A stretch of 64,000 bases of DNA from an uncultured Pseudomonadota bacterium (GCA_963774325.1 CAVZEF010000004.1:222958-286957); one strand, 5' to 3'. Shown: positions 52,192 to 57,755, counted from the stretch's first letter. Notes: generated by a model from the letters alone, not told the origin. Numbers and translations are program-made.

Positions 52192-53580
52192 TCAAAACAA
52201 GGGTGGGCTCGCCAGCGTCGCGAGCTCGAGCGCCTGCTGCGCGAACCAATCGCCCGCCGCGGGATCGACGATCCCACCCCACTCGGGATCGGTGGTCGAT
52301 CCGGAGACGCCGCGATTGCACGAACCGTCCGACTCGCCGGGAATCTTGATCCAGAGCTCGGCGTCGGCGAGCGGGATGCCGGTCGCCGCCGTCGGCCGCG
52401 GCCCCACGCCCCGACCGGGCGGGTTGCACCAGTTCTGCGCGTCCGGGTAGATCACCGCCGGCGTCCAGGGCCCCTGGCCGTTGCGGCTGGTGTCGATCAC
52501 GAAGTGCGTCGTCGCCGTCGCGCCGCCCATGAGTGCTGCCAATCCCGCGGTCACGCCCGCTGCAAAGTCGGGCGTGTAATTCACGGTGCTGTAGTTGGTG
52601 GCCGGGTCGTATTGGCTCGGGCAATAGTCGAAGTGACCGGCCGCCCAGGGCGCGCCCGCTGTCGCTGCGGTGATGCAGTCCGAGACCCACGTCCCGAACT
52701 GAGCATTTTGATCGGTCGGCTGATAGTTGGACACGTTGAGGAAGAATCCCTGGGCGCGCTGAACACCCGCGGTCACCAGCCGAAACGCCGCATCACCGGG
52801 GCTCAGCCAGGCGCTGTGCGTACCGTCGAGATAGACAGCCGTGCGCGGCGCCTTGGCCCCGATGCTGTCGACGGCGTAGTTGAGCTGCGCATAGCGCTCG
52901 CTCGGGCTGGCGCCCGGCGCGGCGACGACGTTGCCTTGCGCGTCGGTGATCGTCGGCTGGCACGAATCCGCCGCGCCGAAGATGGTCTTGTTGTACGGGA
53001 TGATGCCCAGGCTGTCCGGCTCGAGGATCACCACGGCTTTCCCGTCTCCGATGCCGCGCGCAAAGCCGTCGATCCAGGCCTCATACGCGACCGTGTCGAC
53101 GGCGCCGCCCGCCGAGAAGCCCGCGCAGTCACGAAACGGGACGTTGTACGCGACCAGCACCGGCACCCGTCGTTCCTGGGACGCCGCCCGCATGGTGTTG
53201 CGCACCCCCCGCTCGACCTCGACGGGTGAGCCCGAGGTGAACCACACCGCTTGTGGTATCGCCTCCATCGTTGCCAGACGGCGCGCATCCGCGAGGCGCC
53301 GTGCGCGAAGCAGCTCGACGAGCTGCGTCTCCGCGCCGGCGTCCGGCGGGCGCACGAAGAAGCGCGTGTCGGGCGCCAGACCGCGCGGGTCGCCGCACGA
53401 GGACTGCGATGTCGATTGCCCGTCCGTCGAGGTGAGCGCGGCGGTGCGCTGCCCCTGCGTTTCGATCGCCGTCGGGTCACCGCCGCAGGCGCCGATCCCG
53501 CATGCGACCAGCGCCGACAACGCCGTGGGAAAACGCCCTGCTACCTTTGTCCTCGCCCGACTCTCGTTGTTCATGTCCAT
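52192..53580 (-). CDS. GH6 cellulase lipoprotein (catalytic residues intact)
   Basis: GAGGAG RBS, GIGA-C lipobox, VAYNVPFRDC, ILEPDSL, YLDGTHS, IDTSRNG, WCNPPGRG, WIKIPGESDGSC. Confidence 0.92.
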   Translation of the reverse strand: MDMNNESRARTKVAGRFPTALSALVACGIGACGGDPTAIETQGQRTAALTSTDGQSTSQSSCGDPRGLAPDTRFFVRPPDAGAETQLVELLRARRLADARRLATMEAIPQAVWFTSGSPVEVERGVRNTMRAASQERRVPVLVAYNVPFRDCAGFSAGGAVDTVAYEAWIDGFARGIGDGKAVVILEPDSLGIIPYNKTIFGAADSCQPTITDAQGNVVAAPGASPSERYAQLNYAVDSIGAKAPRTAVYLDGTHSAWLSPGDAAFRLVTAGVQRAQGFFLNVSNYQPTDQNAQFGTWVSDCITAATAGAPWAAGHFDYCPSQYDPATNYSTVNYTPDFAAGVTAGLAALMGGATATTHFVIDTSRNGQGPWTPAVIYPDAQNWCNPPGRGVGPRPTAATGIPLADAELWIKIPGESDGSCNRGVSGSTTDPEWGGIVDPAAGDWFAQQALELATLASPPLF

Positions 53581-53633
53581 GGGTCTCCTCGTTTTCGTTT
53601 CCCCTCGCGGGATTGCGAAGCGAGCAGACGAAC

Positions 53634-53649
53634 AGCAACGAACGGACCA
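53634..53649 (-). promoter_or_regulatory. Putative sigma54 -24/-12 promoter of the GH6 gene
   Basis: Minus strand TGGTCCGTTCGTTGCT (GG-N10-GC, TTGCT), about 54 nt upstream of the ATG. Confidence 0.65.
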
Positions 53650-53711
53650 ACGCCGAGACGGCGGGATCGCGGTCATTCATGCCGCTACCGGCACCCGAAT
53701 CGGTGTCGGCC

Positions 53712-53739
53712 GACGTCTCGGACGTCCGCCGCGGACGTC
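53712..53739. promoter_or_regulatory. Three GACGTC palindromes, candidate enhancer for the adjacent activator
   Basis: GACGTC at 53712, 53721 and 53734, 63-90 bp upstream of the -24 element. Confidence 0.5.
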
Positions 53740-53764
53740 CACTCGGTCGCCGCGTGCCGGACCG

Positions 53765-56287
53765 CTACTTCTTCACGAGGGATGTCGGCGCGCTCGCGTC
53801 GATATCGAGAGGCGGGTTTGCGTTGCGGGCCAGCTCCAGGGCTTGATCCGGGAACCATTCGCCGATCGGTTCGCCGCTGCTCGGGAGGACACGCCCCCAG
53901 AGCGGATCGAACTGGTTCCGCGAGTCGCCCGCGATACCCCACGGGTTGTAGCGGCTGTAGTCCCAGGCCCGTGCCCCGCCGGCGATGTCACAGGATGCGT
54001 TGCAGATCCCAGGCATCTCTGCCCAGAGGTAGGCGTCGACCAGCGGCACGCCCGTGCTGGGCGTGGGAGGAAGGCCAACCCCGCGGCCGGGCGGCATGCA
54101 CCAGGCCCCGTAGTGCAGCACCTCGATGACCGGCGGCGGCTGATTGTACGGCGCGTGCCCGTAAACGCTGACGTCGAGCGGGCCGCGCCCATTGCGGTTC
54201 GTGTTGATGACGAAGTGGGTGAGCGCGTCGGTCGACGGCGGGTGAGCGGCCCGATCCACGTGCTCGACGTACCAGGCCTCCACCTTGGCCCAATCGGCTT
54301 CTTCGATCGGGGCGCTCGGTTCGGGTTCGCGCTCGTAGTGGGGCTGTCTGGGGCAATCTGCATAGCGGTTCGCCCCGGCGGGGGCCGAGGGCGCCGTGCG
54401 CACGTAGTAGATGCACTTCGCGATCGCGGTGCCGTACTGGATCGAGCGCCGCGTGGCCTGGAAGTTGCCGACGTTCAGGAAAAATCCCGCGGTTCGGCCC
54501 ACGCCGGCGCGCACCAGCCGATAGGCCGCGTCGCCGATCGGCAGCCAATCACTGTGTGTCCCGTCGAGATAAACTTCCGCGTTCGGGGCCTTGGCGGCGA
54601 GGACGTCGACGGCGTAGTTGAGCTGCAGGTAGCGATCCTCCGGCGTCGCGCCGGGAGAAGGGACTCGCCTGCCATCGGGACGCGCCTGCATCGGTTTGCA
54701 CTCGTCCTCCCCTCCGTTCAACCACCTCCCGTGGGGCATGAGACCGAGCCCGTTCGGTTCGAGCAGGACGATGACCGGCTCGTTACCGATTCCAGCGACG
54801 AACCCATCGATCCAGGCTTTGTAGGCCGCGGTATCGACCGCCCCCATGATCTCGTATCCGGCGCAGTTGCGAAATGGGCGCTGGGACGCCACCAGGACCG
54901 GCATCCGCCCTCTGCGTTCCGCTCGGGTGATGACCTCGCCGACCTGCGCGCGCACCTGCTCGGGCGAGCCGCTCACGAACCAGATCCCCGCCGGCGTGGC
55001 AACCATCGCGCTCAGCAGCGCGGCGTCGCGTGCGTCGTTGGCTTTCCGGAGGCTCGCGATCTGCGCGACCGCGCCCGGCGGCGGATCGGAGCTCAGGAAC
55101 CGCGTGTTCGGATCGAGCCGGTGGATCCGGCGCGCGGGCTGCCGCGCGACCGGGGGAGCGGCGGGGGCCGCGGCCTTCCGCACGGCCACGACCGCCACGG
55201 CCAACACCGCGACGAGCAATCCGGCGCCGAGCAACGCGCGGGAACGAAGGCGCCCGCTCGGCGCACGGGGCGTCGATGCGCGATTCTCAGCAGCCGGGCC
55301 GATGCGCATCGAACCGCTCGCCGATGCCGCGGCCTCGTGGTCATCACCCTCTGCTACCAACGTGGAGATCCTGTCGAAGCGGGCTCGTCCGGAATCCTCG
55401 GGCGGCGGCGGCCAGACCTCGCGGCGCGCGAACGGCGCCAGCGCGCGGCCCAGGGCCTCCGCCGATGAAGGTCGCAGCGCGAGATCCGAAGCCAGTACGC
55501 AGTCGACGATCTCTGCGAGGCCCGCGGGCAGGTCCGGCCGCACCGACGCGATCGGAACGGCTGCATGCGTGGCGATGTGATGCAGGATCGCGTTCTGCGA
55601 CCCGCCCGGGTGCGGCCGTTGCTGCGACACCAGCTCGTAGAAGATCGCGCCCAGCGCGTAGATGTCCGCCCGCGCATCGACCGTCTTTTCGCCGCGCGCC
55701 TGCTCCGGCGACATGTATACGACCGTGCCGATGAGCGACCCGGTGCGCGTTGCCGCGCTCGCTTCTTCCAGCGCTTGCAGCTTCGCCACGCCGAAGTCGA
55801 GGACCTTGACCAGATCGGTGCCGTCGTCGCGCCGGCTCACGAACAGGTTCTGCGGCTTGAGATCGCGGTGGACGATGTCGGCGGCGTGAGCCGCCGCGAC
55901 CCCGCGACAAGCCTGCAGGATGAGATCGGCCGCGCGTGTGACCGGCAGGCGGCCCTCGCGCTCCAGCAACGCCGCCAGGCTCTCACCGACCAGGTACTCC
56001 ATCACGATGTAAGGTGTGCCGTCGTCGGCGATGCCGAAGTCGACCGCCGCCGCGACGTTCTCGTTCTCGAGCGCGCCCGCTGCTTCGGCCTCGCGCTGAA
56101 ACCGCGCGAGGATGTCGCGACGTTCGGCGAGCTCCTGGCGCAGCAGCTTGATCGCGAAGCGCCGGTGCACGACCGTGTGCAGCGCTTCGTACACGAGGCC
56201 CATTCCGCCGCTGGCGAGCAGCCGGACGATGCGGTACTTCCCGCCGATGATTGCGCCGATCCGGCTCGTCTCCGCCAGGGCCTTCAT
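53765..56287 (-). CDS. Hanks-type Ser/Thr kinase - TM - degenerate GH6 domain fusion
   Basis: Kinase LASGGMG, AIK, HRDLKPQN, DFG, MSPEQ, DIYALG; TM LLGAGLLVAVLAVAVVAV; GH6 fold with PFRNC, EPNGL and PGICNASC. Confidence 0.92.
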   Translation of the reverse strand: MKALAETSRIGAIIGGKYRIVRLLASGGMGLVYEALHTVVHRRFAIKLLRQELAERRDILARFQREAEAAGALENENVAAAVDFGIADDGTPYIVMEYLVGESLAALLEREGRLPVTRAADLILQACRGVAAAHAADIVHRDLKPQNLFVSRRDDGTDLVKVLDFGVAKLQALEEASAATRTGSLIGTVVYMSPEQARGEKTVDARADIYALGAIFYELVSQQRPHPGGSQNAILHHIATHAAVPIASVRPDLPAGLAEIVDCVLASDLALRPSSAEALGRALAPFARREVWPPPPEDSGRARFDRISTLVAEGDDHEAAASASGSMRIGPAAENRASTPRAPSGRLRSRALLGAGLLVAVLAVAVVAVRKAAAPAAPPVARQPARRIHRLDPNTRFLSSDPPPGAVAQIASLRKANDARDAALLSAMVATPAGIWFVSGSPEQVRAQVGEVITRAERRGRMPVLVASQRPFRNCAGYEIMGAVDTAAYKAWIDGFVAGIGNEPVIVLLEPNGLGLMPHGRWLNGGEDECKPMQARPDGRRVPSPGATPEDRYLQLNYAVDVLAAKAPNAEVYLDGTHSDWLPIGDAAYRLVRAGVGRTAGFFLNVGNFQATRRSIQYGTAIAKCIYYVRTAPSAPAGANRYADCPRQPHYEREPEPSAPIEEADWAKVEAWYVEHVDRAAHPPSTDALTHFVINTNRNGRGPLDVSVYGHAPYNQPPPVIEVLHYGAWCMPPGRGVGLPPTPSTGVPLVDAYLWAEMPGICNASCDIAGGARAWDYSRYNPWGIAGDSRNQFDPLWGRVLPSSGEPIGEWFPDQALELARNANPPLDIDASAPTSLVKK

Positions 56288-57657
56288 CGGCCCTTGTCCC
56301 CGTCGCTGCGCAGGCTGTCGAGGTCGACGCCCTGCCCCTCCATGAGGCGATAGGCGCGCTGCCGGCTGATGCCGAGAACCGCCGCCGCGCGCGCGACGTT
56401 TCCGCCCGCGGCCCGCAGGGCCGAGATCAGCACGGGCAGCTGCATCGGTTCGGTTGCAGCGGAAACCGGCGGTGACCTCTCCGGCGTCTGGGCGCTGGCC
56501 TGCACAGGCGCAGCGGCCACGCTGGATCTTTCGGTCATGCGTTCGGGCAAATGCTGGGCCGTGAGAGTGACGCCCGATCCGTGCACCGCCATGAGCCGCC
56601 GCGCGAGCAACGCGAGCTCGCGCACGTTGAAGGGCCAGTCGTAGATGCACAGCCGCTCAGCGAGATCACTCTCGAAGGCGGGCACCCGATCGGGAGCGGC
56701 CGCCTCCAGCAAGCGCGCGAACAGCGGCAGGATGTCCTCCCGCCTTTGCCGCAGCGGCGGCAGGCTGACCGTGAGCCCGTCGAGCCGCGCGAACAAGTCG
56801 CTGCGGAAGCGTCCGGCGCGAACGGCGTCCATCAACGATTGCTGGCCGGCGACCACGACGCGAACATCGATCGGCACGGGCCGCGCCTCGCCGAGCGGTT
56901 GCACCTCGTGCTCCTCGAGCACGCGCAGCAGCTTGGCCTGCAACGGCATTGGCAGGTCGGAGACCTCGTCGAGCAGCAACGTTCCCCGGTCGGCGCTGCG
57001 GAAGAAGCCCGGGCTCGCCCGATCGGCGCCCGTGAAAGCGCCGCGGCGATAGCCAAACAGCTCCGCCTCCGCGAGGGCTTCGGGGAGCGCCGCGCAATTG
57101 ACGGCGATGAACGAGCCCTGGCGTCCGCTCCAGCGATGGAGGGCGTCGGCGACGCGCTCCTTCCCGGTACCGGTCTCACCCTCGATGACCACCGGCAGAT
57201 CGGTGACCGCCACGCGTCGCAGGGGCGCGAGCGCACCGATGAGCGCTTCGCCGCCCCAGAAGCCAGGCACGATCTCGACCACGTCGCCGGGAGCGGCGGT
57301 GACCACGCCGATCCAGCCGCCGAGCCGCAGCACGTCCTGCGGCGCGAGGGGCGCAAGCGGGATCTGGCGACCATTGACCCGGACGCCGTTCCGGCTGCCG
57401 AGGTCCACGATGGTCGTCACCGCTCCGGCACCCGGGCGCAGAACCGCATGCCGTCGCGAAACATCGTGTCCTCCCAGCTGAACGGCGCAGCCGGGATCTC
57501 TTCCCAGCGTGGTCTCGCCGTCGCGGTCCGATTTCAGCGCGACCGCCGGGACGCCGCTGTGCGGGTACCGCCAGGCGATCGAGAGCGCGTGCGTGGCTGC
57601 CGCCGTGGGCCCCGAGACCGCCTGGGTGATCGTCGTCGTGCCGCCCCCGTCGCTCAT
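56284..57657 (-). CDS. FHA-domain sigma54 enhancer-binding protein
   Basis: FHA (LGRD, VSRRH, GSRNG), GETGTGKE, GAFTGA, LLDEV, WPFNVREL, Fis-type HTH; stop overlaps the kinase ATG (ATGA). Confidence 0.93.
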   Translation of the reverse strand: MSDGGGTTTITQAVSGPTAAATHALSIAWRYPHSGVPAVALKSDRDGETTLGRDPGCAVQLGGHDVSRRHAVLRPGAGAVTTIVDLGSRNGVRVNGRQIPLAPLAPQDVLRLGGWIGVVTAAPGDVVEIVPGFWGGEALIGALAPLRRVAVTDLPVVIEGETGTGKERVADALHRWSGRQGSFIAVNCAALPEALAEAELFGYRRGAFTGADRASPGFFRSADRGTLLLDEVSDLPMPLQAKLLRVLEEHEVQPLGEARPVPIDVRVVVAGQQSLMDAVRAGRFRSDLFARLDGLTVSLPPLRQRREDILPLFARLLEAAAPDRVPAFESDLAERLCIYDWPFNVRELALLARRLMAVHGSGVTLTAQHLPERMTERSSVAAAPVQASAQTPERSPPVSAATEPMQLPVLISALRAAGGNVARAAAVLGISRQRAYRLMEGQGVDLDSLRSDGDKGR

Positions 57658-57755
57658 GCCCAACCGCCTTGATACCACGGTGCGGCCGCGCCGCTCAAAG
57701 GACGCCGGCGAGCCGATGCTATACTCGAGTCGTGTCCGCCCGCAGCACCGACCCC

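Follow-up and report, generated by a model that had tools for sequence, protein, structure and literature searches.

The locus and its relatives

Does a Ser/Thr kinase fused to the fold of a GH6 cellulase act as a receptor controlling the intact cellulase gene beside it? The question is raised by three genes on the minus strand of a 64,000-nt stretch of DNA (hereafter the window) from an uncultured soil myxobacterium of the class Polyangia, coding for an FHA-sigma54 activator (enhancer-binding protein, EBP), a Hanks kinase-transmembrane (TM)-GH6 protein and an intact GH6 lipoprotein. A preliminary description had taken them for three co-directional genes of a cellulose-sensing circuit. Each element was found on the minus strand, at the coordinates given below, and every part of the circuit interpretation accessible to computation (architecture, operon, promoter/enhancer and rpoN) held. 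We consider it likely that the three genes constitute a dedicated circuit sensing beta-1,4-glucan.

The EBP gene occupies positions 56284–57657 (457 aa from the ATG at 57657, with an alternative GTG start at 57678) and its stop overlaps the ATG of the 840-aa kinase-GH6 gene (53765–56287). This overlap reads ggccgATGAagg, bearing out the ATGA coupling of the two genes that had been proposed. Elsewhere in the genome we located rpoN (G000:C2:3103964) and further GH6 genes (C3:57-66 kb; C3:1.0 Mb), the latter without kinase linkage. Pfam analysis of the flanking genes of the window returned no match except one M16 peptidase.

An architecture search for Pkinase, TM and Glyco_hydro_6, as suggested in the preliminary description, uncovered a large family with more than 80 protein clusters of 48–86% identity, and within a single family of Polyangia the fusion is carried by 16 species-level genomes. 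An assembly chimera is thus ruled out, since the same fusion occurs in independent assemblies. The EBP gene adjoins the kinase-GH6 gene in 19/22 loci, mostly with a 4-nt overlap, and this operon is kept while the gene order around it varies. A standalone GH6 gene is found nearby in about 13 of the 22 loci. Neighbourhood conservation, also put forward initially as a check, was therefore observed: the EBP/kinase-GH6 operon and a nearby glycanase gene are kept in relatives of 50–86% identity. In four to six loci no target adjoins the kinase gene, and at some loci a TPR/PEGA protein or a small lipoprotein, not a glycanase, stands under the same promoter. The system is absent from three further species in the genus.

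The kinase and its topology

The kinase domain lies at 55451–56236 on the minus strand (Pfam Pkinase, aa 18–279, E 2e-40). Its motifs are intact, namely the G-loop (GGMGLV), AIK, the alphaC glutamate E66, HRDLKPQN, DFG and SPE, and they are conserved across 44 relatives; the activation-loop residues T180/T182 are encoded at 55742–55750. The predicted structure of the domain matched Mycobacterium tuberculosis PknB with TM-scores of 0.78–0.88, the top structural match being the PknB-GarA complex entry 6i2p. Pfam, motifs and fold match together place the protein among the Hanks-type (eukaryotic-like) Ser/Thr protein kinases. It does not belong to the PknB/Stk1 PASTA kinases: its score with the NF033483 model was 273.9 bits, below the equivalog cut-off of 450, the match did not extend beyond the kinase and juxtamembrane part, and in place of PASTA repeats the ectodomain has a GH6 fold.

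A single hydrophobic segment was detected (55181–55237, minus strand; aa 351–369; Kyte-Doolittle 2.85), overlapping a helix at aa 355–372 in the AF2 model. The order initially described, with catalytic kinase motifs, one TM helix and a C-terminal GH6-fold domain, was thus recovered by Pfam, motifs and hydropathy. Because the charge bias flanking the helix is weak (4 vs 3 basic residues), the assignment of topology rests on three features: the kinase needs ATP, the protein has no signal peptide, and the cysteines are conserved. These point to a kinase inside the cell and a GH6 domain that would face the periplasm of a diderm cell.

The GH6-fold ectodomain is a predicted pseudoenzyme

The ectodomain (53984–55045, minus strand; Pfam Glyco_hydro_6, aa 415–768, E 3e-35) clearly has a GH6 fold: PF01341 scored 123 bits against a cut-off of 27, PDB sequence matches were to GH6 enzymes, and Foldseek aligned the model to M. 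tuberculosis Cel6 (1up0) and Thermobifida fusca E2 (1tml) with TM-scores of 0.83–0.84. It is a close paralogue of the target enzyme (41–50% identity; 43% between the two proteins of the window).

Alignment to T. fusca Cel6A/E2, whose numbering is used here, revealed the changes Y73S, D79N, D117N, K259E, E263I and D265N. D117 is the catalytic acid position, and among D117, D79, D156, D265 and Y73 only D156 is kept; replaced catalytic positions of the window protein are N474 (54866–54868), N512 (54752–54754) and N763 (53999–54001), all on the minus strand. Residue comparison thus confirmed that the ectodomain lacks catalytic residues, and we predict a pseudoenzyme. D117 is N, S, G or H throughout the nearest clade, and no member of the degenerate clade keeps K259, E263 or D265, all of which lie on one side of the cleft. 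In a residue census H159, W162, N190, W231, R237 and W257 were retained, and the six cysteines are invariant. Ratios of dN/dS were 0.18–0.38 for the ectodomain vs 0.46–0.66 for the linker, indicating that the ectodomain sequence is still under purifying selection.

Degenerate GH6 domains are confined to the clade nearest the window. More distant fusions retain every catalytic residue, and therefore the architecture does not require loss of activity. Since K259, E263 and D265 are changed in addition to the catalytic acid, the sugar-binding cleft appears partly remodelled, and the ligand could accordingly differ from cellodextrin. As the sensor would lie in the periplasm of a diderm, a soluble cello-oligosaccharide is a likelier ligand than insoluble cellulose, and is the one that we regard as likely.

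The FHA-sigma54 activator

Pfam recognised FHA, Sigma54_activat, AAA_lid_14 and HTH_8 in the EBP. The FHA domain (57319–57513, minus strand; PF00498, E 2.3e-14) keeps the pocket residues GR (GRDPG), SxxH (SRRHA) and NG, and is on this basis a phosphothreonine-binding domain whose binding is predicted. The sigma54-interaction AAA+ domain (56767–57231, minus strand; PF00158, E 1.9e-56) carries Walker A (GETGTGKE), Walker B (LLLDEV) and GAFTGA at aa 206 (57025–57042), and a Fis-type HTH, the DNA-binding domain (PF02954), follows at 56359–56436 on the same strand, with 66–80% identity among EBP orthologues. The intact FHA, GAFTGA and HTH announced in the preliminary description are therefore all in place, and the protein is by these features a bacterial sigma54 enhancer-binding protein. 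A -24/-12 target, enhancer sites and rpoN complete the picture at the sequence level, binding and activation being predicted.

Ahead of the FHA core, by 35–45 aa, sits a TT(I/V)T tail, a candidate phospho-acceptor (TTTIT, aa 7–11; 57625–57639, minus strand). Its motif G-x-(T/N/S)-T-T-(I/V)-T is kept in 18/18 EBP orthologues that retain the N-terminal region.

The target gene, its promoter and its candidate enhancer

The target GH6 gene (52192–53580, minus strand; 462 aa; Glyco_hydro_6, E 4.4e-64) encodes an enzyme retaining all catalytic residues. It is preceded by a ribosome-binding site (GAGGAG, 53585–53590, ahead of the ATG at 53580), and a lipobox LVAC at 53500–53511, which fits the pattern [LVI][ASTVI][GAS]C, designates its product as a bacterial lipoprotein by motif alone (MDMNNESRARTKVAGRFPTALSALVAC, Cys27). 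Pfam, catalytic residues and lipobox thus agree with the intact downstream lipoprotein first described. In the predicted 5′ leader a small conserved hairpin was noticed by eye (53603–53620, minus strand; CTTCGC-AATCCC-GCGAGG), one stem pair being T-G, T-A or C-G depending on the locus.

The gene had also been credited with its own -24/-12 site. Such a site, TGGTCCGTTCGTTGCT, is present at 53634–53649 on the minus strand (GG 53647–53648; GC 53635–53636), with 2 mismatches to the consensus. Within the window this lone site is not above chance, 22 sites being found vs 22 expected, and it gains significance only because it is conserved at the same position in relatives. In the nearest relative TGGTCCGTTCGTTGCT is 16/16 identical despite diverged flanks, and in the 86%-identical relative intergenic conservation is confined to the upstream activating sequence (UAS, 21/21) and the -24/-12 block (23/23). 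More generally, a -24/-12 site of at least 9/11 was found within 350 nt after the kinase gene in 14/20 loci, vs about 0.05 expected per locus (background 0.136 per kb per strand), and each upstream-placed GH6 neighbour likewise has one. One candidate 3′ of the kinase gene, TGGTACGCCGATGGCA at locus L136, was rejected as chance: it lies ahead of a panB-like gene and lacks an enhancer.

The candidate enhancer (53712–53740, minus strand) consists of the 8-bp palindrome GGACGTCC in tandem upstream of the -24/-12 site (53733–53740 and 53720–53727) and of GACGTC at 53712–53717. At 16/20 sites at least two GGACGTCC-like motifs were present 57–132 nt upstream, vs 2.8% of random windows. Taken together, sequence conservation supports the reading of the target promoter as a sigma54 promoter that has been conserved along with its enhancer.

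This UAS is unique in the 8.57-Mb genome, as the sole GGACGTCC pair followed by a -24/-12 site of at least 9/11, and a whole-genome search for more enhancer targets found none; judged from these sites, the regulon in this genome seems to consist of the adjacent GH6 gene alone. Arrays of GGACGTCC with a 12-nt period, possibly coding repeats, were seen elsewhere in the genome and lack promoters. No sigma54 site of at least 9/11 precedes the EBP operon (best 8/11, 248 nt upstream), and autoregulation of the operon is not supported. Between 52000 and 58000 neither a sigma70-like promoter nor a convincing terminator was found.

As an independent test, we searched other genomes using the UAS pair alone. 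It occurred in 2–4 places in each, and 7/11 of these places had a -24/-12 site of at least 9/11 vs an expectation of about 0.09 per place. Among the genes behind such promoters are those for GH6 (350 bits), CBM4_9-CelD_N-GH9 and a lipoprotein distantly GH79/GH44-like; a divergent GH8 gene has an 11/11 promoter. The same enhancer and promoter signature is therefore present at unlinked cellulase genes in other genomes. Enhancer-marked promoters also drive some proteins without glycanase similarity.

Proposed circuit and competing explanations

In our model, whose ligand, phosphorylation steps and regulatory sign are inferred, an inner-membrane Hanks kinase would expose its GH6-fold domain in the periplasm, where it probably binds cello-oligosaccharides without cleavage. 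Binding would alter the activity of the kinase, which would autophosphorylate on the conserved TRTG of its activation loop, and the signal would be read by the co-translated FHA-sigma54 activator. By analogy with PknB-GarA, the FHA domain may dock on the phosphorylated kinase loop, and the TTTIT tail may be phosphorylated and then bound by the FHA domain, controlling assembly of the AAA+ ring. The activator would bind the tandem GGACGTCC palindromes, which lie about 80 nt upstream of the -24/-12 site, and fire sigma54-RNA polymerase, so that the adjacent gene for the catalytically intact lipoprotein would be transcribed; here the sequence architecture is observed. The enzyme's own products might then reinforce the signal. 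We lean slightly towards extending this scheme to a family of uncultured Polyangia, in which a kinase with a dead GH6 cellulase would be the cello-oligosaccharide receptor, a GarA-like FHA switch would act within the sigma54 activator, and GGACGTCC enhancers would define a GH6/GH8/GH9 regulon.

The sign of this regulation could be the reverse. The unliganded kinase would keep the EBP inactive, through membrane sequestration by FHA-phosphothreonine binding or through GarA-like inhibitory phosphorylation, and ligand would switch the kinase off and free the EBP. The FHA domain of GarA and OdhI is indeed shut off when their N-terminal Thr tail is phosphorylated. That PknB-GarA (6i2p) is the top structural match speaks for such a scheme. 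The conserved TT(I/V)T tail is compatible with either sign, and sequence evidence does not separate the two. Most receptor Hanks kinases (PknB, PknD) are, however, activated by ligand-driven dimerisation, and we hold a reversed sign to be rather unlikely. A similarly low probability is given to an ectodomain that senses a cue other than the products of cellulose breakdown. This cue might be a different beta-glycan, an exopolysaccharide made by the cell itself, a glycan from the wall of prey or of a fungus, or the partner GH6 protein. Replacement of K259, E263 and D265 along one side of the cleft would suit a different ligand, as would the sharing of the promoter type with non-glycanase genes (TPR/PEGA, small lipoproteins) and the frequency of predators among myxobacteria. 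Yet the enhancer-marked promoters drive GH6, GH8 and GH9, the classical beta-1,4-glucanase families, and the sensor is closely paralogous to its own target, both of which favour a beta-1,4-glucan signal.

Adjacency might instead be a relic of duplication, the kinase-GH6 protein being a decayed anchored enzyme without link to the GH6 gene and the EBP having its targets elsewhere. Paralogy of the sensor and target domains means that tandem duplication could explain their neighbourhood, but it leaves aside the purifying selection on the ectodomain, the persistence of the operon amid changing gene order, the conservation of enhancer and sigma54 promoter at the target and only there in the window's genome, and the recurrence of this signature at unlinked cellulase genes of other genomes. 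We find this explanation very improbable. Scarcely any weight, and less still, goes to a fused GH6 domain that remains an enzyme by means of alternative catalytic residues, as a membrane-bound cellulase with an unrelated kinase role. The more distant fusions, with their full catalytic set, may be active; in the window protein, however, D117, D79, D265 and Y73 are all replaced, and the substitution of D117 extends over the whole nearest clade. Asp-to-Asn at the acid position is moreover the standard inactivating change in GH6 enzymes.

Relation to known systems

A literature search for kinase-GH6 or kinase-glycosidase sensors found no paper describing such an architecture, in agreement with the initial statement that no described kinase-GH6 receptor was known. 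The circuit resembles in its logic the RsgI/SigI systems of Clostridium thermocellum, membrane sensors of plant polysaccharides that control cellulolytic genes (PMC10328401, PMC6852018, PMC4711584), without being a member. Both combine an extracytoplasmic carbohydrate-binding or glycoside-hydrolase-like module with the switching on of matching genes via an alternative sigma factor. Whereas RsgI proteolysis frees the sigma70-family SigI, the present system comprises sigma54, a Hanks Ser/Thr kinase and an FHA AAA+ activator. The sensor modules of RsgI, in a monoderm Firmicute, are of the CBM3, PA14 or GH10/GH5-like type, in contrast to GH6 in a diderm myxobacterium. RsgI/SigI systems are defined by an N-terminal anti-SigI domain, an autoproteolytic periplasmic domain and a cognate sigI gene; in the sensor protein described here Pfam shows only Pkinase and GH6.

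If true, this would be a fourth bacterial mode of cellulose sensing beside RsgI/SigI, LacI-type CebR/CelR repressors and the hybrid two-component/ECF systems of Bacteroidota, and the first fully traceable Ser/Thr kinase to sigma54 route controlling polysaccharide degradation. Every link, from the enzyme-derived sensor to a cellulase regulon of one or a few genes, is legible in the sequence of this locus and of its relatives. The system is compact, could be tested in a heterologous host and lends itself to the study of how an AAA+ activator is driven by Ser/Thr phosphorylation. It would also represent a hydrolase turned receptor for its own substrate class, with intact and degenerate fusions coexisting. 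Two applications suggest themselves, with the ectodomain as a candidate module for binding cellodextrins and the circuit as a candidate cellulose-responsive switch.

A glycoside-hydrolase-fold ectodomain without its catalytic residue is known from CHRK1, a chitinase-related receptor-like kinase of plants. CHRK1 differs in being eukaryotic, in its GH18 fold and in its downstream pathway, and ancestry is common only at the level of the kinase superfamily. With the endoglucanases T. fusca Cel6A (E2) and M. tuberculosis Cel6 (1tml, 2boe, 1up0) the ectodomain shares the GH6 fold, the disulfide cysteines, H159, W162, W231 and R237; unlike them, it carries long insertions, follows a kinase and a TM helix in a fusion protein, and has lost the catalytic acid and three other active-site carboxylate/tyrosine residues.

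The EBP shares with the FHA-EBPs of Myxococcus xanthus the FHA-AAA+-HTH order, the replacement of the receiver domain by FHA and a presumed control by Ser/Thr kinases; those of M. xanthus act in development. They were reportedly described by Jelsbak, Givskov and Kaiser in 2005. To our knowledge, the kinases, signals and DNA sites that go with them are for the most part undefined, and FHA-domain sigma54 activators have been catalogued for some twenty years without a defined input. Likewise, among the abundant Hanks-type kinases of myxobacteria, we know of almost none with a known ligand, direct transcription-factor partner and target promoter. In the present system, unlike in M. xanthus, a single locus reveals the sensor, the kinase, the EBP, the enhancer, the promoter and the target. 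FHA-EBPs are also mentioned in PMC4320627 and PMC2875238.

With the PknB-GarA and PknG-OdhI pairs of Actinobacteria (PDB 6i2p, PMC2784874) the system has in common a kinase domain resembling that of PknB, with TxT in its activation loop, and an FHA partner with a short N-terminal tail of adjacent threonines. PknB differs in sensing muropeptides through PASTA repeats, and GarA and OdhI are small metabolic regulators without AAA+ or DNA-binding domain. The EBP thus resembles the GarA/OdhI phospho-switch in its tail only, which does not amount to membership, and its phosphorylation is predicted. Similar TTI motifs were seen in FHA-EBP paralogues of the same genome.

The three genes of the window

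The region (G+C ~70%) carries three genes, all on the minus strand, and reading of their domains and motifs bore out the coordinates and description given for them in the preliminary description. The gene at 56284-57657 encodes the FHA-sigma54 enhancer-binding protein (EBP), 457 aa with FHA, Sigma54_activat, AAA_lid_14 and HTH_8 domains. It retains the phosphothreonine-pocket residues of the FHA domain, GR (GRDPG), SxxH (SRRHA) and NG, as well as the AAA+ motifs Walker A (GETGTGKE), GAFTGA and Walker B (LLLDEV). Its stop codon shares an ATGA overlap with the start codon of the kinase-GH6 gene (53765-56287), whose 840-aa product comprises a Pkinase domain (aa 18-279) with the full set of kinase catalytic motifs, a single strongly hydrophobic segment (aa 351-369) and a Glyco_hydro_6 domain (aa 415-768). 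The target GH6 gene encodes a 462-aa protein with an LVAC lipobox; it most likely starts at ATG 53580, with a GAGGAG ribosome-binding site ahead, and ends at 52192.

The fused GH6 domain

We aligned the fused domain to T. fusca Cel6A/E2, the numbering being checkable through the Y73S mutation of entry 2boe. The ectodomain carries Y73 to S, D79 to N, D117 (the catalytic acid) to N, K259 to E, E263 to I and D265 to N, and retains D156, H159, W162, N190, W231, R237 and W257 together with cysteines aligning with C80, C232 and C267. The target enzyme has lost none of the residues compared. Judged by these residues, the fused domain is a pseudoenzyme.

An AlphaFold2 model of the kinase-GH6 protein built with 44 homologues had a mean pLDDT of 74.5, with the cores of both domains mostly above 85, and gave TM-scores of 0.78-0.88 against M. 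tuberculosis PknB and of 0.83-0.84 against the GH6 endoglucanases 1up0 and 1tml. We infer a cytoplasmic kinase and a periplasmic GH6 domain from the need of the kinase for ATP, from six ectodomain cysteines, invariant throughout the family, which fit periplasmic disulfides, and from the absence of a signal peptide at the N-terminus. The charge bias flanking the TM helix is weak (4 vs 3 basic residues).

A conserved family with a degenerate clade

The Pkinase + GH6 fusion, for which an assembly chimera had been considered beforehand, is a real and conserved family. The ectodomain query returned 505 significant proteins; most of the best 120 are Pkinase + GH6 proteins of 48-86% identity, and metagenomes or MAGs labelled Polyangia bacterium are the source of nearly all of these 120. 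Existing annotation calls the fusions merely "glycoside hydrolase family 6 protein" or "endoglucanase". In a class-level sample of 401 genomes, matches occurred in 47, of which 41 belong to the window's family, and fusions (open frame of at least 770 aa) were present in 16 of the matching genomes. A phylum-wide genome sample gave no further fusion genomes.

The clade closest to the window (56-86% identity) has N, S, G or H in place of D117, and has also lost K259, E263 and D265; remoter fusions (~50% identity) keep all catalytic residues. The GH6-domain tree shows the degenerate clade as monophyletic and places close-paralogue standalone enzymes, the window's target among them, inside the fusion family with support of 84-95. 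A fused ancestor may have given rise to these enzymes when its kinase was lost; alternatively, the fusion may have arisen more than once. Omega was 0.18-0.38 for the degenerate ectodomain; the intact clade gave a similar range (0.17-0.30) and the cytoplasmic linker a much higher one (0.46-0.66). The degenerate ectodomain is thus under purifying selection, as a functional and not a decaying domain.

Other GH6 genes were seen in the same group. A 685-aa protein from the window's genus (L132:8439-10496, genome G240) lacks a kinase domain; it combines a membrane anchor at the N-terminus with a GH6 domain and, C-terminally, an unassigned domain of ~190 aa. It too carries D117N (LEPNG), so that loss of the catalytic acid is not confined to kinase fusions. 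Elsewhere in the window's own genome (G000), a GH6 gene (C3:57393-58158; L141:7340-8141) is split over two reading frames, with profile positions 8-149 in a 714-aa frame and the remainder in the other; it is either a frameshifted pseudogene or a long-read assembly indel error. Near-complete long-read assemblies of the window's family (5-20 contigs) reach only 67-89% in the completeness measure, which suggests that the marker set is poorly suited to this lineage.

Gene neighbourhood in relatives

Neighbourhood conservation, proposed beforehand as a check, was borne out by domain maps: an FHA-AAA-HTH gene lies immediately 5' of the kinase-GH6 gene in 19 of 22 independent loci, usually with a 4-nt overlap, and a standalone GH6 gene adjoins the pair in ~13 of the 22. 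The placement of this neighbour is variable (upstream, downstream or divergent), and it is of two types, a paralogue of 41-50% identity beside degenerate sensors and a canonical GH6 of 22-25% identity beside intact ones.

At two loci, L123:10091-13420 (= L007) and L130 (= L009), the partner of the FHA-EBP is a paralogous kinase of 468-473 aa without GH6 ectodomain (67-73% identity over the kinase domain), and the kinase-GH6 gene adjoins this pair, divergently transcribed. This suggests that two kinases may feed one EBP in these genomes.

Enhancer and promoter at the target

The candidate -24/-12 promoter of the window, TGGTCCGTTCGTTGCT, lies at 53634-53649 (minus strand); alone, this element is not above chance within the window, and it gains weight by comparison with relatives. 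Counting matches of at least 9/11 with invariant GG and GC, we found a -24/-12 element on the same strand, up to 350 nt 3' of the kinase-GH6 gene, at 14 of 20 evaluable loci, for a measured background of 0.136 per kb per strand. Each GH6 neighbour placed upstream is likewise preceded by an element of at least 9/11.

Upstream of the -24/-12 elements lies a tandem palindrome, GGACGTCC, with a spacing of about one or two helical turns. With one mismatch allowed, at least two copies stand 57-132 nt upstream of the -24 in 16 of 20 promoters; among 250-nt windows drawn at random from these loci, 2.8% have them. In the window itself, copies occupy 53733-53740 and 53720-53727 (minus strand), with a third repeat, GACGTC, beside them at 53712-53717 (minus strand). 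The intergenic DNA of the nearest relative (86% protein identity) has diverged save for two identical islands, the 21-nt UAS and a 23-nt block spanning the -24/-12. In the 8.57-Mb genome of the window, where rpoN was also found, GGACGTCC occurs 183 times, exact pairs no more than 60 nt apart are present twice, and the target promoter alone has both a pair and a good -24/-12.

The predicted 5' leader contains a small hairpin (CTTCGC-loop-GCGAGG; 53603-53620, minus strand) just past the sigma54 start site. It is conserved in the equivalent leaders of four other loci (L008, L123, L125 and L126), with one stem pair being T-G, T-A or C-G depending on the locus, and could be an mRNA-stabilising or regulatory stem-loop.

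The predicted regulon in other genomes

The enhancer pair alone was searched in genomes whose kinase-GH6 locus has no adjoining target. It occurred at 2-4 places per genome, and at 7 of 11 places a -24/-12 element of at least 9/11 followed within 320 nt, the chance expectation being ~0.09 per place. The genes behind these unlinked promoters encode a canonical GH6 (Pfam 350 bits), a CBM4_9-CelD_N-GH9 cellulase, two lipoproteins with distant similarity to GH79/GH44 enzymes, a TPR/PEGA membrane protein, a 143-aa lipoprotein homologous to small lipoproteins encoded 3' of kinase-GH6 genes elsewhere, and a 260-aa lipoprotein without Pfam match. At one further locus a divergent GH8 lipoprotein gene has an 11/11 promoter along with two GGACGTCC copies. 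Thus, the DNA signature linked to the EBP family marks mainly beta-1,4-glucanase genes.

TPR+PEGA membrane proteins (346-386 aa), which are not glycanases, stand under GGACGTCC and a -24/-12 at L122:9521-10561, L128:9405-10565 and L149 (G349:C44, ~55 kb), the -12 being merely 13-16 nt ahead of the start codon. The same protein type also follows the GH6-less paralogous kinases of L007 and L009, and may be a further pathway component. Lipoproteins of 143-155 aa without Pfam match (L008:11106-11573, L125:6895-7356, L126:6566-7027 and L146:933-1364), encoded directly 3' of kinase-GH6 or under an enhancer/sigma54 promoter unlinked to it, seem to belong to the regulon.

A probable receptor-kinase circuit and its relation to known systems

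The preliminary description had proposed that the GH6 ectodomain senses cellulose or cello-oligomers and, through the kinase and the EBP, switches on the cellulase. This reading is supported by the conserved operon, the enhancer and promoter, the cellulase regulon elsewhere and selection on the dead domain; the regulon is its strongest support. Our analysis adds to it the family-wide census of catalytic residues, the evidence of selection, the conserved enhancer and promoter, the regulon and a candidate phospho-acceptor tail. As far as the sequence tells, the ligand is most likely a periplasmic cello-oligosaccharide; since the cleft is remodelled on its K259/E263/D265 side, another glycan is conceivable.

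A full-text literature search, with most subscription journals outside it and absence therefore no proof, gave no account of a kinase whose sensor derives from GH6 or another glycosidase. Closest in logic are the RsgI/SigI biomass sensors of Clostridium thermocellum, in which an extracytoplasmic carbohydrate-binding or GH-like module is coupled to expression of the matching enzyme (PMC10328401, PMC6852018, PMC4711584), although they have no signalling component in common with the present system, whose parts are a PknB-like receptor kinase, an FHA-EBP of the Myxococcus xanthus class and the GH6 fold. The proposed circuit combines known kinds of parts and is unusually complete and easily testable.

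Probable signal transfer from kinase to EBP

The activation loop T180-R-T182-G-x-hydrophobic is near-invariant among kinase-GH6 relatives (n = 44) and resembles the TxT loop of PknB. On the EBP side, a motif G-x-(T/N/S)-T-T-(I/V)-T, which reads MSDGGGTTTITQ in the window, lies close to the N-terminus and 35-45 residues ahead of the FHA core in 18 of 19 orthologues, the exception being the L011 gene, without N-terminal region and FHA domain. In GarA/OdhI, the phosphorylated loop of the kinase is a docking site for the FHA domain; N-terminal threonines also become phosphorylated, whereupon the protein's own FHA domain binds them. The Thr tail and FHA domain of the EBP, with the TxT-like loop of the kinase, resemble this arrangement, and the top structural hit of the kinase model was 6i2p, the PknB-GarA complex. 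By analogy, the signal probably passes via the phosphorylated loop and the Thr tail. A GarA-like phospho-switch could govern hexamer assembly of the EBP; in NtrC, assembly is controlled by receiver-domain phosphorylation. Phosphorylation may activate or inhibit the EBP, the sequence fitting either sign.

By tblastn, the window's genome has ~57 hits to EBP-like AAA+ sequences and 141 to kinases. Three FHA-EBP paralogues there have an N-terminal TTI-type motif (C6:1343119, STTIP; C5:654671, DTTIP; C3:130738, TLTIE), two of them followed by a kinase gene; FHA-EBPs in general may carry such a Thr tail.
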